From Candidatus Finniella inopinata (GTDB taxonomy: Bacteria; Pseudomonadota; Alphaproteobacteria; Paracaedibacterales; CAITNM01), in NCBI GenBank assembly GCA_945860985.1, contig CAMASM010000003.1, forward strand, positions 1-42,486: a DNA stretch of 42,486 bases, in the 5' to 3' direction. Below are positions 12,993 to 19,682 of the stretch, piece by piece. The notes beneath the pieces were generated by a model. The model made no database searches. It was given only the letters and a program-made list of their open reading frames with translations, and was not told where the DNA came from. Both the position numbers and the translations under genes were made by a program. How positions within the stretch are numbered: position 1 is the stretch's first letter; every line of letters begins with the position of its first letter.

Positions 12993-14392
12993 CCCGCTGG
13001 ACAAAAGATTCTTTAAAAACGGCTCTTGAGCTTGATATATCGTTTGATATCGCCTCTCACAACTTGTGTATTGATACGCGGCAGATTCAACGTGGCGATA
13101 TATTTATTGCAATTAAGGGTGCTAAAGATGGCCATGAGTACGTTAAGAAAGCATTTGAACAGGGGGCTGTTTGCGCAATTGTTGAGTATACCCCTGCTAA
13201 TATTAGTGATACTTCCAGACTAATTTACGTTGATGACACTTTAAAAGCACTTACTTCTTTAGGGATTTATGGAAGAAGTATGGCTAAAAAACTTAGGGCA
13301 ATTGCGGTTACAGGTAGTGTTGGTAAAACAACAACAAAAGAAATGCTGCGTTCAGTTTTGCATTGCTTTGGTCCTACAATTTATTCTAAGGCTAGTTATA
13401 ACAATTACCTTGGTGTGCCCTTAAGCTTGGCTTTACTAAGTAACGACAGCAAGTTTGGCGTTTTTGAGGTTGGCATGAATCATGTCGGAGAAATTGCTCC
13501 ACTTGCAAAAATTGTTGATCCAGAAATTGCAATTATTACTACAATTTCACCTTCACATATTGGCAACATGGGATCCTTAGAGGCAATAGTTGATGAAAAG
13601 TGTCAAATTTTTGCTGGGTTGCGTGAAAATGGCATAGCTATGGTGCATGGTGATCATCCTCTATTTGATCGTATGCAACGCAATGCCAAAGCGCATGGTG
13701 TACATAATATTTTTACAGTTGGATGTAAAGCTGGATTAGATGCGAGATTGCTACATTATCAGCCAGTGCAGCAAGGTACTAAAGGTCTGGTTACTGCTGA
13801 AATTTTTGGAAAAATTGTGGCTTATCCTTTGCAGTTCGCTGGTGAGCACTATGCTTTTAATAGTTTGTATGTATTGCTTACTGCAGAGGTGCTGGGTATT
13901 GATTTGGGTGAAACCATGCAGCAATTAGCGAAGGTTCAGCCAGTAATTGGCCGTGGACAAATGCATAATTTGCAATTGTCCAATGGCTTGCCAATTTTTG
14001 TGTTTGATGATGCATACAATGCCAATCCAACTTCGATGAAAGCTGGTTTAAAATCATTTTGCACTATGCAACATCAAGGTAAACGTATTGCGGTAATTGG
14101 ACAAATGGGAGAGTTAGGTGAACATAGCGATGCTTACCATATAGAAATTGCTCAATACATTAATAGCTTACCGCTAGATCGCGTTCATGTGGTTGGTTCC
14201 GCAGCAAAAGGCATGTACCAAGAAATTGATACGCAAAAGCGCGGTGAATGGTTTGCTACAGTTGACGATATGAAAACAAATTTTATTAATGAATTAACAG
14301 GGTATGAGAGTATTTTTTTAAAGGGATCGTTATCTCAAAAATTACAGGAACTCGTTGCTTTGCTTAAGAATCAGCTTAGGTCTGTAGCTTAG
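12989..14392 (+). CDS. murF: UDP-N-acetylmuramoyl-tripeptide--D-Ala-D-Ala ligase
   Basis: DTR, TGSVGKTTTKE, NNYLGVPL, EVGMNH, DDAYNANP.SM. Confidence 0.96.
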   Translation: MTRWTKDSLKTALELDISFDIASHNLCIDTRQIQRGDIFIAIKGAKDGHEYVKKAFEQGAVCAIVEYTPANISDTSRLIYVDDTLKALTSLGIYGRSMAKKLRAIAVTGSVGKTTTKEMLRSVLHCFGPTIYSKASYNNYLGVPLSLALLSNDSKFGVFEVGMNHVGEIAPLAKIVDPEIAIITTISPSHIGNMGSLEAIVDEKCQIFAGLRENGIAMVHGDHPLFDRMQRNAKAHGVHNIFTVGCKAGLDARLLHYQPVQQGTKGLVTAEIFGKIVAYPLQFAGEHYAFNSLYVLLTAEVLGIDLGETMQQLAKVQPVIGRGQMHNLQLSNGLPIFVFDDAYNANPTSMKAGLKSFCTMQHQGKRIAVIGQMGELGEHSDAYHIEIAQYINSLPLDRVHVVGSAAKGMYQEIDTQKRGEWFATVDDMKTNFINELTGYESIFLKGSLSQKLQELVALLKNQLRSVA

Positions 14393-15783
14393 GTTGATAC
14401 GTGAGCTATTTTTAGTTTTGTGCTGTTGGCACCATCACCAACTAGAAGATGCATTTCTTCATTAAACTCAACAATTTCAGCTTTTGCGGAACGCCCTTCT
14501 GCTGTGCGCACTAGTTCTTGGCAAACTACTGCTAGAATTTGTCCAGCTAGCAAATTAGGAGAGATGCCTAAATCAATTAAGCGTGCTGGCGCCACAAAGG
14601 GGCATGAGGCGTGGATTGTTGCTAAAACCAAGTGACCTGTCATTGAAGCTCTTAAAGCCATTTTAGCTGTATCTTCGTCTCGAATTTCGCCTATTAAAAT
14701 AACATCAGGATCATGTCTCAACATTGACCTAACTCCATCAGCGAAGTTAATTACTCCAGCTTCATGAATTTCTGTTTGGCGAACGCCATTAACTCTGTAT
14801 TCAATTGGTTGTTCAAGGGTCATAATGTTCTTTTTGCTGCTATCAAGTTCTTTTAAAAGTGCGTGTAATGTTGTTGTTTTTCCAGAACCAGTTGGTCCGC
14901 AAACTAAAAATAAACCGTAAGATTTGTTTACAAGTTTTGTCATTGCTTCAACTTGTGCGTTTGAAAACCCTAGTTCAATAAGTGATAAAACTTGCCGATT
15001 AGTTGGTAATAAGCGTATTACTAAGCTTTCCCCTAATGAGCATGGGTGGAAAGATGTGCGGCAATCAATTGGGCTTCCTTGAATGTTTAATGTGCATCCA
15101 CCTGATTGGGGCCGACGACGCTCTGCGATATCTAATTTTGCCAAAATCTTGAGGCGTACGCAGGTTTTTTCATAAATTTCTAATTCTAAATGTTGGTAAA
15201 TTATCAATTCACCATGAATGCGAAATTTAACAACAATCATTTGGTCTAATGGCACAAAATGAATGTCGGAAGCTTCTTTTAAAAAAGCTTCGCTTAAAAG
15301 GTTGCTAAATAAACTTTCAAAAGAGGCATCAAACCCTTCAGCTACAGGAGAGGCTGATTTTTGTAGTGCATATACGAATGCTTGTTTGTGTGTATTGTAA
15401 AACTTGCAAATAACTTTTTTTTCAAAAAGGTTTTCCGCAGATTTTTTTAAGATGTCTTGAACCAACACGTTTTCAGGGTCTAGCATTGCAATGTGCAAAA
15501 TGTTATCTAAACAAAATGGGATAGCTGAGTGCATTTTGCAAAATTCTTTGCCAAATTTAAAAATTAAATTACTGTCTATTGAAAAATTTTCTAAATCAAT
15601 ATATGGGTATCCCGTAATTTCACTAACAAACTCTCCCATAATTTTGGGTTGTACAAATCTTAAATCAACTAATATTTCACTTAAAAAAGCTTGGCTTTTT
15701 TGCTGCTGCATTAAGGCAATGTGCAGTTGATCTGGGGTAATAAGGCCCCTTTTTAAAAGTATTTCTTCAAAACCTGGTGACAA
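14389..15783 (-). CDS. GspE/PilB-family secretion ATPase
   Basis: N-terminal MshEN-like segment, ASDIH, LDIAERRRPQSG, GPTGSGKTTTL, LRHDPDVILIGEIRD, TGHLVLATIHA. Confidence 0.92.
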   Translation of the reverse strand: MSPGFEEILLKRGLITPDQLHIALMQQQKSQAFLSEILVDLRFVQPKIMGEFVSEITGYPYIDLENFSIDSNLIFKFGKEFCKMHSAIPFCLDNILHIAMLDPENVLVQDILKKSAENLFEKKVICKFYNTHKQAFVYALQKSASPVAEGFDASFESLFSNLLSEAFLKEASDIHFVPLDQMIVVKFRIHGELIIYQHLELEIYEKTCVRLKILAKLDIAERRRPQSGGCTLNIQGSPIDCRTSFHPCSLGESLVIRLLPTNRQVLSLIELGFSNAQVEAMTKLVNKSYGLFLVCGPTGSGKTTTLHALLKELDSSKKNIMTLEQPIEYRVNGVRQTEIHEAGVINFADGVRSMLRHDPDVILIGEIRDEDTAKMALRASMTGHLVLATIHASCPFVAPARLIDLGISPNLLAGQILAVVCQELVRTAEGRSAKAEIVEFNEEMHLLVGDGANSTKLKIAHVST

Positions 15784-15838: not shown

Positions 15839-16759
15839 TTGATAAATATTGCTGAAATTATTGTGCAATGGCGGATAGAATTGAGTAATTTGAATCGCTC
15901 GCCAAATACTGTAAAGGCATACTTACAGGACTTTTTTGACTTTAAAAATTTTTATGAAGATTATCATAATAATGAACTTACAGTTGAGAAATTTAAAGGG
16001 ATTATCCCGCAAGATATCCGGGCTTGGTTGTTGCACCAAAGAAAATTGCAAAAAAATACTAGGTCTTCAATACGAGGTTTGGCTGGTTTAAGGAACTTTA
16101 GCAATTTTTTATTGCAGCAACAAATTATTGATGATCATGCTTTTTTTCATTCTAAAAGTCCGAAATCTCAAAAAACTTTGCCGCGGCCTGTAAGCATTGA
16201 TCAAGCCATGGAAATTACAAGTACTATTCAGGATATGTCTGATATTCCTTGGGTTGGTTTGCGTAACCAAGCATTAATGCAATTGTTATATAATACAGGC
16301 ATGCGTATTTCCGAGGCTCTTAATTTAAATCAAAAAGATTTATTAAGCGAAAAATTTATAACCGTTGTTGGTAAAGGTCAAAAAATGCGTCAGGTGCCAA
16401 TAATTGATTCTGTGAAAGAATTATTGGAAAATTACCTAAAGGTTCAACCATATGCTAATAATTCAGATTCACCATTATTTTATGGGGAAAAAGGCAAGCG
16501 ATTGCAGGCAGCATTAGCGCAGAAAGCTTTGCGTGATTTTAGAAGGACGCATGGGTTACCAGAATCACTTACCCCACATGCTTTGCGCCATAGTTGTGCG
16601 ACCCATTTAATGCAATCTTCCCATGATTTACGTGGTATTCAAGAATTGCTAGGCCATGCTTCGCTTTCATCAACTCAGGTATACACTCAGATTGATGAGT
16701 TTAGCATGATGAAAACTTATAAAGCGTCACACCCAAGGGCAAAAAAGCAAGAAGATTAA
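15839..16759 (+). CDS. xerC: Tyrosine recombinase XerC
   Basis: SPNTVKAY, LP(R)P, LLYNTGMRISE, GKGQK.R.VP, TPHALRHSCATHL, IQELLGHASLSSTQVYT. Confidence 0.88.
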   Translation: MINIAEIIVQWRIELSNLNRSPNTVKAYLQDFFDFKNFYEDYHNNELTVEKFKGIIPQDIRAWLLHQRKLQKNTRSSIRGLAGLRNFSNFLLQQQIIDDHAFFHSKSPKSQKTLPRPVSIDQAMEITSTIQDMSDIPWVGLRNQALMQLLYNTGMRISEALNLNQKDLLSEKFITVVGKGQKMRQVPIIDSVKELLENYLKVQPYANNSDSPLFYGEKGKRLQAALAQKALRDFRRTHGLPESLTPHALRHSCATHLMQSSHDLRGIQELLGHASLSSTQVYTQIDEFSMMKTYKASHPRAKKQED

Positions 16760-16769
16760 GCGGTTCTTC

Positions 16770-16797
16770 TTGAATTCTTTGTAAAAAGTACTATATT
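16770..16797 (+). promoter_or_regulatory. Putative sigma70 promoter of ssrA
   Basis: TTGAAT-N16-TATATT directly upstream of the tmRNA acceptor piece. Confidence 0.5.
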
Positions 16798-16804
16798 TAT
16801 ACTG

Positions 16805-17181
16805 ATGCTTGCATCTATAGCGATAAACGGTCTATGGAATAGGCGTAGTGGACCCGGGGGCGGTACCCGGCGCCTCCACCATATATTATGGGGGCGACAT
16901 AGGATCGACACGCGTGGTAAAGATAGGCTCTTCGCTCGGTATGGTTCCGTCGTTATCGGGCTAACATTAATAAGTGTCGCAATTTTACGCACACGTAGAG
17001 AGACAGCAGTTAAGTTTACCAACCAAAACCGCAAGGGTATGGTTGCAGGTTTGACTACTGTGGCAAACAACAACACTTTTGGTGGTGTTGCTGCAGCAGC
17101 TGCCTAAACAAACTCTGTTTGTTGAAGCGGTAGCCTCTTAGGGGCTTGGGGAGTAGCCTTGCAACAGAATACTCCCCACTT
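16805..17181 (+). ncRNA. ssrA: Two-piece (circularly permuted) tmRNA, alphaproteobacterial type; ends approximate
   Basis: Acceptor piece ends ...ccgggggcggtacccggcgcctccACCA (16881); 8-nt intervening segment; coding piece starts GGGGGCG (16890) giving the G3.U70 Ala identity pair; tag frame ends ANNNTFGGVAAAAA* (17107); 3' hairpin with gcaacagaa; sspB adjacent. Confidence 0.95.
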
Positions 17182-17198
17182 AATTTTAAGAGGAGGAA

Positions 17199-17693
17199 TT
17201 GGTGGCAAAAGATCTTATTGATTACGAAGCAATGGTTCAAACAGCCCTGCGGGATGTAGTTAAAAAAGCTATTGGCAATGCCGCGAAGCATGGTTTGCAA
17301 GGTAATCATCATTTCTACGTAACTTTTGCTACAGATCATCCTGGTGTTGTAATGCCTGATTATTTGCGTGATCAGTACGGGGATGAAATTACCATTGTCT
17401 TGCAGTATGAGTTTTGGGATCTGTTGGCTGATACCAAGGGATTTTACGTAACTTTGTGTTTTGATGATGCCCATGAAAAATTGTACATACCATATTCTGG
17501 ACTTTTAAGTTTTGTGGATCCTTCTGTGAAGTTCGGCCTACAGTTTAATCCGGTAACCGATGAGCCTGTTGAAACAGGAAAAACGATTAAGGCTGATAAA
17601 CCCGACAAGTCAGACAAGGTGGCTTCTAAAAAGTCCGATTCTGCTAAGGGCACTTCAAATATTGTGACTTTGGATTCATTTCGCAAGAAATAA
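17199..17693 (+). CDS. sspB: ClpXP adaptor SspB (alphaproteobacterial type)
   Basis: IDYEAMVQ.ALR.VV, HHFYVTF.T.HPGV, FVDPSVKFGLQF, C-terminal ClpX-binding IVTLDSFRKK; SD aggagg. Confidence 0.93.
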   Translation: MVAKDLIDYEAMVQTALRDVVKKAIGNAAKHGLQGNHHFYVTFATDHPGVVMPDYLRDQYGDEITIVLQYEFWDLLADTKGFYVTLCFDDAHEKLYIPYSGLLSFVDPSVKFGLQFNPVTDEPVETGKTIKADKPDKSDKVASKKSDSAKGTSNIVTLDSFRKK

Positions 17694-18749
17694 TTGTCCT
17701 GCTATTGTCGGTTCGTTTACTCCAGTTGTGCTGGGGAAACTTGATGGTAAGTTTTCAAAAAATCGTGCTGCCAGGTAGGCAATCAATTGTGCTTCTATCG
17801 CATCTTCACTGAAACCAAGGTCAGAAACTTTAAGCACTTCCTCAAAATTTTGGCATAAGCCATTCATGATTACTGGGTTATGGCAACCACCACCGCAGAC
17901 AACTATTCGTTGTGGTGGTATTGGTAAATTTTGCAAACTTGTAACGATGCTTTGAATTGTGAATTGCGTTAGGGTTGCGGCGCCATCTTCAACTGAAAGT
18001 TTTTGGCAATCATCTAAATTTTTGTGAAAATACAGACGATCTAACGATTTTGGTAGTGACTGGGTGAAAAACGGGTCTTCTAGCCATTTATTTAAAATAG
18101 TCGGAATTACTATGCCTCGTGTGGCGCATTCGCCATTTGTGTCTTGCGCAATTCCTGTGTGTTGGGCCATCCAGTCATCAATTAGCGCATTGCCAGGGCC
18201 AATGTCTCCGGCGATTAGATCGTTTTCAGTAATTAAGGTTAGGTTGGTAATGCCGCCAATATTTAAGATTACTAATGGTTTGGGTAGCTTTGCAGTTATT
18301 ATTTGATGGTAAATTGGGGCAAGAGGTGCTCCTTGTCCTCCATTTGCTACATCATTAAGGCGCATTTTCCCAATTACATTTATGTTTAATTGATTGGCTA
18401 GTAGTTGGCAGTCTCCCAATTGAACAGTTAGTTTATTGGTTGGGTCGTGCCAAACTGTTTGCCCATGAAAGCCTACAGCATCAACTTCAAGTTGGTTGTG
18501 TCGTATAAATTCTTTTATGTGGTGGGCATGGTAGTTAGCAATATCTTTTGCTAATTCATCATCCATAAAATGGCGTGCAGTTCCTAGGGTAACTCGTTTA
18601 CGTAAGGTGTTGCGGTAGTTGCTAGCAAAAGGAATTGTCGTAGATGGCCCAACGGTCAACTGGTCACTACCATTTGTTATTATATAGGCAAGATCTAGTC
18701 CATCGCACGAAGTGCCAGTCATGCAGCCAATTAAGCGGTAATTTGCCAT
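17676..18749 (-). CDS. anmK: Anhydro-N-acetylmuramic acid kinase
   Basis: GCMTGTSCDGLD, GFHGQTVWH, GGQGAPLAP, NIGGI.N, DIGPGNALID, CGGG. Confidence 0.95.
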   Translation of the reverse strand: MANYRLIGCMTGTSCDGLDLAYIITNGSDQLTVGPSTTIPFASNYRNTLRKRVTLGTARHFMDDELAKDIANYHAHHIKEFIRHNQLEVDAVGFHGQTVWHDPTNKLTVQLGDCQLLANQLNINVIGKMRLNDVANGGQGAPLAPIYHQIITAKLPKPLVILNIGGITNLTLITENDLIAGDIGPGNALIDDWMAQHTGIAQDTNGECATRGIVIPTILNKWLEDPFFTQSLPKSLDRLYFHKNLDDCQKLSVEDGAATLTQFTIQSIVTSLQNLPIPPQRIVVCGGGCHNPVIMNGLCQNFEEVLKVSDLGFSEDAIEAQLIAYLAARFFENLPSSFPSTTGVNEPTIAGQLFLAK

Positions 18750-18856: not shown

Positions 18857-19612
18857 TTATTTTTTTTTACCTTTTCTTAAGCTTGGGAAACAACCGCAGC
18901 ATTCCCCATCTTCAATTGCTTGTAGCAATTTTGATACGGCAGCTGATGCGGCGTCTGATGCTTTAGAAAGTCCAAGGTATGAAACATTTACCAGCTTAGC
19001 AATTGTTGGTGTAAATGTTTTTGCTACAGAAATAATTTCAGACTGATGATCTTTTGCTAAGCTTCCAACAGAAGATAAAGAAGCTGGCAAAGCCTTGAAT
19101 AGTTCGCCTAAAAGTAATGGTAAATCTTTATCCATAGTTTCTTTCACAAAAGCCTCACAATTTTTAAGGTCAGCTAGGGCGCTTAATTCTCTTTCGGTTG
19201 TGTCTATGGTATTAATTATCTTTCCAAAAGCTGTATATACTGCGTTTTTATCATCGAAAAAATTTGCAAGTTTTGGAAAATCACCAGGGCTTTGGCGCAC
19301 CCATGCAGCAAGTGATTCGCACATTAGGTATGAAAAATCAGCCCAATATAATTTTTTGTGGCTGTCTCCGCCAATTATACCACCACTAGACAGTAGGTAT
19401 CCGGTAATTTTAAATACGGAACTTTGAGTGCCATCTCTTGAGAAATCTAAAACACACTGTTGCATTGGCATTCTAGCAGCAGGAGTTCTAGCAGCGTCTA
19501 AGATATCATCTACTATTCTTAATTCGACTACTTCATGTGCTGCTGCTGATAGTGCTGCTATACTTAAGCTAAATAATATTAGTGTGTATGTTTTAGTAAA
19601 AAAATTCTTCAT
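18857..19612 (-). CDS. Secreted hypothetical protein with Cys-cluster/polybasic C-terminus
   Basis: ATG 19612 with SD tggaga; signal peptide MKNFFTKTYTLILFSLSIAALSAA; ends ECCGCFPSLRKGKKK. Confidence 0.8.
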   Translation of the reverse strand: MKNFFTKTYTLILFSLSIAALSAAAHEVVELRIVDDILDAARTPAARMPMQQCVLDFSRDGTQSSVFKITGYLLSSGGIIGGDSHKKLYWADFSYLMCESLAAWVRQSPGDFPKLANFFDDKNAVYTAFGKIINTIDTTERELSALADLKNCEAFVKETMDKDLPLLLGELFKALPASLSSVGSLAKDHQSEIISVAKTFTPTIAKLVNVSYLGLSKASDAASAAVSKLLQAIEDGECCGCFPSLRKGKKK

Positions 19613-19682
19613 AACGTTTCTCCACATTTTAAAAGTTAAAACAAAACCAGTTGGTTTCAATGTTTATTCTCAGTTAAAAATA

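Follow-up and report, generated by a model that had tools for sequence, protein, structure and literature searches.

A 43-residue tag reading frame in the two-piece tmRNA gene of a Finniella-like alphaproteobacterium, and long tags throughout its order

We analyzed a 42,486-nucleotide (nt) stretch of contig CAMASM010000003.1 from Candidatus Finniella inopinata, hereafter called the window, and found that the ssrA gene of this small-genome freshwater alphaproteobacterium (Paracaedibacteraceae/Finniella-like) encodes a tag of 43 residues, which is three- to fourfold longer than usual. Textbook tagging by transfer-messenger RNA (tmRNA) is built on tags of ~10 residues. Based on the context of the resume codon, the conservation of the frame among relatives, and the in-frame enrichment of Asn-x-Asn (NxN) motifs, we consider it highly probable that the tag is translated in full from position 16976, in line with an earlier note on this DNA that had offered an unusually long, basic tag starting there as one of two readings. 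Every relative that we searched in the window's order turned out to carry a long tag as well, and the long tag characterizes the order as a whole instead of being a peculiarity of a single genome.

Judged by its sequence, the gene is a two-piece alpha tmRNA gene that bears every hallmark of this type. The Rfam model RF01849 (alpha_tmRNA) matched positions 16766-17178 of the forward (+) strand over its entire length (model positions 1-355 of 355) with 197.7 bits (gathering score, 50), which bears out the tmRNA call of the earlier note, while RF04321 (tmRNA_permuted) matched 16819-17107 with 119 bits (gathering score, 47). The RF01849 match was the only one in the whole genome, and a control search recovered Caulobacter vibrioides. 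All parts of the gene lie on the + strand and follow the circularly permuted order, where the CCA-bearing acceptor piece lies upstream and is followed by the intervening sequence and then by the coding piece. The acceptor-piece region, which starts with the RF04321 match, spans 16819-16881 and runs up to the discriminator A (16878) and the encoded CCA (16879-16881). The intervening sequence, i.e., the loop between the two acceptor strands in the Rfam alignment, comprises the 8 nt at 16882-16889, and the coding piece (16890-17178) holds the 5′ acceptor strand, the PK1 region, the tag open reading frame (ORF), and the 3′ part. The acceptor is of the tRNA-Ala type: its stem has 7 base pairs, which join 16890-16896 to the 3′ acceptor strand (16877-16871), with G16892-U16875 as the third pair. 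In relatives, the spacing between the CCA and the GATCGAC motif was 17-69 nt. The bases that the window's gene has in surplus of the Rfam model fall within the tag ORF.

The strongest argument from the single sequence for a tagging start at 16976 is the score of the resume context. As a review states (PMC3985003), the resume codon is set by positions -6 to +1, which are read by SmpB. We scored candidate starts with a matrix covering the 10 positions that precede the start, built from 118 tmRNAs with ANDN-start tags that were located independently of this context and that came from a set of 140 families of Alphaproteobacteria not belonging to the window's order. This matrix features an A at -4 in 111/118 sites, a T at -1 in 114/118, an A at -6 in 85/118, and a T or C at -5 in 99/118. 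Upon scanning the 165 positions from 16940 to 17104, we obtained the top score, 10.74 bits, at GTC 16976; the training sites themselves displayed a median of 6.74 bits, a maximum of 11.51, and a minimum of -1.99. The canonical resume context that had been recognized at 16970-16976 thus ranks first: the sequence ATAAGT (16970-16975, positions -6 to -1) lies directly after the PK1 region and precedes a GTC (Val) resume codon. The internal GCA at 17063, with which the more ordinary-looking ANNN...AAAAA part of the tag begins, scored -10.56 bits, i.e., below the lowest training site. It is preceded by ACTGTG, with a T at -4 instead of an A and a G at -1, and it indeed lacks a resume signal, as the earlier note had pointed out.

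The frame that starts at GTC 16976 runs through 43 codons to the TAA stop codon at 17105-17107, where the RF04321 match also ends, and its translation, with VAAAAA at the C terminus, is exactly the one given previously. To judge the frame among relatives, we used 41 genomes including the window's own, of which 13 further ones belong to the same genus, 1 to a second genus of the family, and 26 to nine other families of the order. The Rfam tmRNA family was present in 41/41 genomes and yielded 42 sequences, the extra one being a second copy in genome G038. In all 42 of these sequences, the frame was open from the aligned resume codon, with a hydrophobic pair, mostly AA, before the stop. The tags were 20-59 residues long, at 22 distinct lengths and with no frameshifting version among them, and so the frame conservation that the earlier note had asked about in relatives was found. 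Tags of more than 35 residues occurred in 18/42 sequences, and three tags exceeded the 43 residues of the window, namely those at loci L024 (50 residues), L022 (52), and L041 (59). Within the genus, the 14 sequences encode tags of 31-43 residues, the window's being the longest. Over the 41 unique tags, the numbers of stop codons in frames 0, +1, and +2 were 0, 73, and 146, respectively, and shuffled sequences would lead one to expect 7.5 open tags in 41, compared to 41/41 observed. The conservation of the frame across relatives is far beyond chance. Separately, we observed that G038 (70% complete, 230 contigs) contains two full tmRNA genes, L019 and L041 (contigs C77 and C60), with tags of 34 and 59 residues, which may reflect a true duplication or a mixed bin.

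Outside the order, long tags were confined to a minority. In the class sample of 140 families, where eight hard cases were read by eye and genomes G079 (unpublished), G065, and G059 were left out, 122 families had tags of 9-15 residues, nearly all of the form ANDN...AA, and the tag began with ANDN in 118, compared to V-A-I-L in the window. In the remaining 18 families, the tags had 19-40 residues and repeated motifs of the AN.N type; only L052 (40 residues) lies above 35, and none of the 18 has a genome larger than 2.5 Mb. Set against the canonical tag, the window's tag lacks the ANDN start and lies outside the range of 9-15 residues, and it keeps the C-terminal (hydrophobic)-A-A degron. A further 20 loci, found by way of their SspB, mostly carried tags of 17-27 residues, several of them with two ANxNR modules. 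Among loci recovered through SspB, the window's nearest relatives are freshwater metagenome-assembled genomes (MAGs), some labelled Candidatus Finniella, Odyssella, or Paracaedibacteraceae. Hence, long modular tags appear to be a trait of a larger host-associated group, with the window's order at its extreme. The clearest module duplication that we came across was in the 35-residue tag of L091, a Holosporales-labelled MAG, which contains a tandem QLNRA..VAKA repeat.

The tag itself can be divided into three modules. Module 1 (16976-17017, +; codons 1-14, VAILRTRRETAVKF) is basic, module 2 (17018-17062, +; codons 15-29, TNQNRKGMVAGLTTV) carries the first NxN motif, and module 3 (17063-17104, +; codons 30-43, ANNNTFGGVAAAAA) carries the second one together with the Ala-rich degron at the C terminus. 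In other families of the order, the stretch that follows the resume codon reads ANxN-(R/S)-T-...-RR; the window's genus has VAxNRTRRE or GRLNRTRR there, and the window itself has VAILRTRRE. Codons 1-14 are thus a degenerate copy of an ancestral ANxN first module, which means that the tag grew internally while its start degenerated. Accordingly, the earlier picture of an 87-nt extension that precedes an ordinary tag does not hold, since codons 1-14 are homologous to the first module of the tags in other families. Codons 15-29 (TNQNRKGMV...) and 30-43 (ANNNTFGGV...) resemble each other, and an alignment of 13 genus tags showed T6, R7, N16, N18, and A30 to be invariant. At least two N.N motifs were present in 32/41 unique tags of the order, whereas 1000 shuffles that preserved composition gave 3.0 such tags on average and never more than 9. 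This in-frame enrichment is the best sign of selection on the peptide rather than on the RNA alone, and together with the genus alignment it suggests that the tag was lengthened by repetition of NxN modules.

The tag ORF is also the most variable part of the gene. Compared to the closest relative, L035, the flanks are 97% and 89% identical and the tag is 56% identical, while the SspB proteins of the two are 94-95% identical; compared to L038, the flanks are 87% and 96% identical and the tag is 84% identical. The tags appear mosaic: that of L036 combines the start of L027 with the remainder of L032, and in the window the tag core resembles L038 (84%) and the flanks resemble L035 (97% and 89%). 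These patterns suggest that the tag cassette recombines within the genus.

Several observations weigh against the translation and use of the full tag. Translation was deduced here from sequence alone, and the window's own frame is weak evidence when taken singly, given that 8.3% of mononucleotide shuffles were open too (P = 0.083); the case consequently rests on the comparison among relatives. A self-alignment repeat test reached p ≤ 0.05 in only 6/41 tags and gave p = 0.41 for the window, and because these self-repeat scores are weak, the idea of modules rests on the N.N count and the alignment. Purifying selection, sought by codon position, was not found, as substitutions were distributed about equally over the three positions, and pN/pS (the ratio of nonsynonymous to synonymous changes) in 21 close pairs ranged from 0.18 to 1.78 with a median of ~0.65. 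The excess of synonymous changes among relatives for which the earlier note had suggested looking was thus not seen. Residue-level purifying selection is thus weak, and translation is not proven by these measures. Contigs from RNA libraries (see below) cannot show ends, strand, level, or rare processed forms, and RNA libraries may contain DNA. ClpP was not found in the window's genome (G000; 97% complete, 123 contigs), nor in the closest relative, G008. Since ClpP is common among relatives, occurring in 37/41 genomes of the relatives search (G000 counted in), its absence from G000 is unproven.

We propose the following course of events. Alanyl-tmRNA together with SmpB would enter a stalled ribosome, and translation would resume at GUC 16976, whereupon the ribosome would add Ala and the 43 encoded residues and terminate at UAA 17105. 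The C-terminal Ala-rich end would then act as a degron for ClpX and possibly for Lon too, while the NxN modules TNQN and ANNN would serve as docking sites for SspB, encoded 92 nt downstream. Here, modules 2 and 3 would be repeats of an NxN-R-x-G-x-V unit, and module 1 the degenerate ANxN start. The alphaproteobacterial SspB reads the N-terminal, Asn-rich part of the tag, and a role of NxN in SspB binding is reported from work on Caulobacter and E. coli.

The components for such a pathway were largely found in the genome. The next gene, as previously noted, is sspB (17199-17693, +; start TTG 17199 or GTG 17202), which encodes the ClpX adaptor for ssrA-tagged proteins and matched Pfam PF04386 with 123.4 bits. 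Its product matched the Protein Data Bank (PDB) chains 2NYS, 2QAS, and 2QAZ with E values from 4.5e-34 to 2.7e-28, and its C-terminal LDSFRKK, taken as the ClpX-binding tail, aligned with the end of 2NYS. In their PDB depositions, 2QAS and 2QAZ are named "Hypothetical protein" and "SspB Protein," and 2NYS is named AGR_C_3712p; we take the source organisms to be Caulobacter for 2QAS/2QAZ and Agrobacterium for 2NYS. SmpB is encoded by a 160-residue open frame on contig C10 (PF01668, 175.6 bits), and ClpX, including its zinc-finger domain, and Lon are encoded as well. On contig C14 (L233), we observed RNase III and signal peptidase genes, and not clpP, upstream of clpX, with lon just downstream. 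In the order, sspB lies downstream of ssrA in 40/41 loci, the exception being at a contig edge. The adjacency extends beyond the window's order: it was observed in the Minwuia records L086 and L087, and among the further loci found by SspB (L088-L108), several of them in Holosporales-labelled MAGs, ssrA lies just upstream of sspB in 17/20. A 4.6-Mb genome with the ssrA-sspB pair and an ordinary 10-residue tag implies that the pairing is older than the long tags.

Whether the NxN modules are working SspB sites rather than tolerated repeats is, in our estimate, evenly balanced. A complex prediction for two substrate-binding domains of SspB (residues 1-125) with the tag scored 0.02 against a mark of 0.32 and weighs neither for nor against binding. 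The most serious alternative accepts full translation and disputes only the layer of adaptor docking: the extra modules would have no function of their own and would be duplications or slippage products tolerated under relaxed selection in small-genome, host-associated lineages, where nothing beyond an open frame and the degron at the C terminus would be needed. We regard this as plausible, though short of an even chance. It would account well for the near-neutral pN/pS in many pairs and the roughly equal changes at the three codon positions, for tag lengths that vary freely between 20 and 59 residues at 22 values, for the tag being less conserved than any other part of the gene (56% against 97% and 89% for its flanks in the closest relative), and for the absence of genomes above 2.5 Mb among the 18 families with long tags outside the order. 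It does not, however, lead one to expect at least two N.N motifs in 32/41 tags against a shuffle mean of 3.0, nor the invariance of N16, N18, T6, and R7 in 13 genus tags amid otherwise rapid change, nor the adjacency of sspB in 40/41 loci.

A bolder extension of the docking proposal is that the tag forms a multivalent array, where each NxN is an SspB site and the ORF is a recombining cassette that co-evolves with sspB. We consider this speculative and rather unlikely. If it were true, one tagged protein could engage both SspB protomers or several dimers, the length of the tag and its number of modules would reflect adaptation in intracellular Alphaproteobacteria instead of drift, and the evolution of the tag cassette would perhaps proceed under conflict inside a protist host.

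A different alternative is that tagging resumes at the internal GCA 17063, which would yield a 14-residue ANNN...AAAAA tag and leave the preceding 87 nt as an untranslated, structured spacer after PK1. The last module does resemble an ordinary alpha tag, loci L027 and L035 carry a TA-containing context before an internal ANRN, and the 87 nt fold somewhat beyond shuffles. We nevertheless judge this reading very improbable, as the context at 17063 scored -10.56 bits compared to -1.99 for the worst real site, and a spacer has no need to stay free of stops and a multiple of three in 42/42 sequences at 22 lengths. Further apparent support came from the tmRNA finder ARAGORN, which on the 41 loci of the order found the gene in 26 and missed it in 15, and which gave a truncated internal tag in 10 of the 26. 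These internal calls were limited to tags of more than 32 residues, which points to a length limit of the program and not to biology. In the other 16 loci, ARAGORN gave the same tag with the canonical start as we did (20-32 residues), which speaks for the full-length reading. In the window, ARAGORN found no tmRNA, and we attribute this miss to the same limit, at ~32 residues, and do not count it against a tmRNA gene. It follows that genome annotations of these lineages probably under-report or misreport ssrA.

Structure in the 87 nt, which the reading of an untranslated spacer calls for, proved modest. The minimum-energy fold of 16976-17062 contains a hairpin at 16984-16999 and a long hairpin at 17003-17061, so that the two hairpins of the earlier note do fold, but the structure is weak compared to shuffles (z = -1.89; 13/200 shuffles folded as well or better), and the long hairpin closes with the 5-nt loop GCAAG and not with a GCAA tetraloop. 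The whole ORF folded with z = -0.63, and the 41 tags of the order had a mean z of -1.58, with 15 below -2. The covariation of the long hairpin that had been put forward as a check was not found: this helix is missing from the consensus structure of 10 genus tags, which also tells against internal resumption. One variant in the RNA contigs described below alters both sides of one predicted pair of the long hairpin and breaks the neighboring pair. With no place in the genus consensus and no supporting covariation, the long hairpin was dropped as structural evidence. The sole helix recovered across the genus is a short hairpin in module 3 (17068-17090, +), with 8 pairs, of which 3 display changes on both sides. 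A further hairpin directly after the stop codon (17107-17123, +; arms 17107-17113 and 17117-17123) has the same letters in the genus loci. Pairing tends to occur between the NxN codons (AAC...AACC) and those of the Gly-x-Val that follows (GGTT..GTT), and local hairpins may hence be a by-product of the module codons, or the reverse.

The integrity of the ORF at the RNA level can be viewed in contigs that we mapped onto 16700-17250 and that come from four metatranscriptome libraries, each of a different study. Library X2 yielded a 228-nt contig identical to 16924-17151, and X7 yielded a contig covering 16899-17175 with 8 differences (7 in the difference table) and no gaps, with adapter letters abutting at 16899. 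X6 and X8 yielded one contig each, at ~16850-17153, with 6 differences and an in-frame 3-nt insertion at 17014-17016, at the border of modules 1 and 2. The X2 and X7 contigs lie within the predicted coding piece, while those of X6 and X8 span the intervening sequence; all of them stop short of the flanking genes. No joint was seen across the ORF, the sole joint in the data being one in a single run that skips 16882-16929. Matches of runs below half of the words, and uncovered parts of the stretch, were not counted as evidence. Unbroken contigs whose ends cannot be seen argue against excision without disproving it.

That the 87 nt are excised like an intervening sequence, or bypassed by the ribosome, to give an ordinary short tag is the least probable reading of all and hardly credible: the segment can form hairpins, and tmRNA genes with intervening sequences and group I introns are described in a 2025 database paper (PMC11915505), but the contigs at 16924-17151, 16899-17175, and 16850-17153 run through the ORF without a joint, 87 nt is below the size of a group I intron (293-414 bp on average in that paper), and the conserved frame and NxN motifs inside the segment would be needless if it were removed. 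The structured insert that the earlier note had considered as excised or bypassed thus finds neither a broken contig in four libraries nor a strong or conserved hairpin in its favor.

Full translation of the 43-residue tag from 16976 accordingly remains our preferred reading. The tag is clade-wide, modular, and fast-evolving, and it lies above the printed range of lengths. A literature search, with database files and supplements outside its range, showed nothing relevant among the papers listed, whether on long tags or on the tmRNA of Holosporales, Paracaedibacter, Finniella, or Odyssella. The 2025 database paper covers 97,179 tmRNA sequences, with 10 residues as the commonest tag length, and highlights 2-residue tags, while long tags go unmentioned in the passages considered here (PMC11915505). 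Tags of this length may already be catalogued in the tmRNA database without comment. A protist-associated order whose tags of 20-59 residues consist of NxN modules, with sspB adjoining, amounts to a natural test series. It allows one to test how delivery to ClpXP or Lon depends on tag length and on the number of adaptor sites, whether ~130 nt of a tmRNA pose any difficulty to a translating ribosome, and why variability is greatest in the tag when the rest of the RNA is conserved.

The surroundings of the gene offered some further observations. A tyrosine recombinase gene (15839-16759, +; 306 residues, with Phage_integrase and SAM-like N-terminal domains) ends 7 nt before the tmRNA gene. In a tblastn search of 91 loci (L001-L041 and L062-L111), this recombinase was present only beside the ssrA of the closest relative (L035/L062). 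An att-like repeat of ssrA, sought in the window, was not found beyond chance matches of 11-15 nt. The neighboring genes on the - strand encode a type II/IV secretion ATPase (14389-15783; T2SSE, 297.9 bits) and an anhydro-N-acetylmuramic acid kinase (17676-18749; AnmK, 282.5 bits), and an ORF at 18857-19660 (-) had no Pfam match.

We finally compare the system with known ones. The Caulobacter two-piece tmRNA is reportedly the model case, set out by Keiler, Shapiro and Williams in 2000. The window's gene shares with this type the gene order, the G-U third pair, the encoded CCA, the PK1 region followed by the resume context, and the Ala-rich end of the tag, and differs in the 43 residues, the GTC instead of GCN resume codon, the loss of ANDN, and the two internal NxN modules. 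Long tags are also on record elsewhere, and in mycoplasmas long tags are directed to Lon. Like the recorded long tags, the window's tag extends well beyond the 10-12 residues of model organisms and occurs in a small-genome bacterium. The natural range of tag lengths is 8-35 residues, as printed in a 2021 review (PMC8012679), whereas the window has 43 and three relatives have 50, 52, and 59. Furthermore, the window's lineage keeps ClpX, Lon, and SspB, and its tags consist of repeated NxN modules. The two-module tags of other small-genome Alphaproteobacteria, at 19-40 residues, similarly display repeated AN.N-type motifs, but the window's order is uniformly at 20-59 residues, and its genus adds a third segment and a degenerate start. 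The SspB encoded next to ssrA resembles the alphaproteobacterial SspB structures (2QAS, 2QAZ, and 2NYS) in its Pfam SspB match and its C-terminal LDSFRKK end; its binding of the window's tag is putative.

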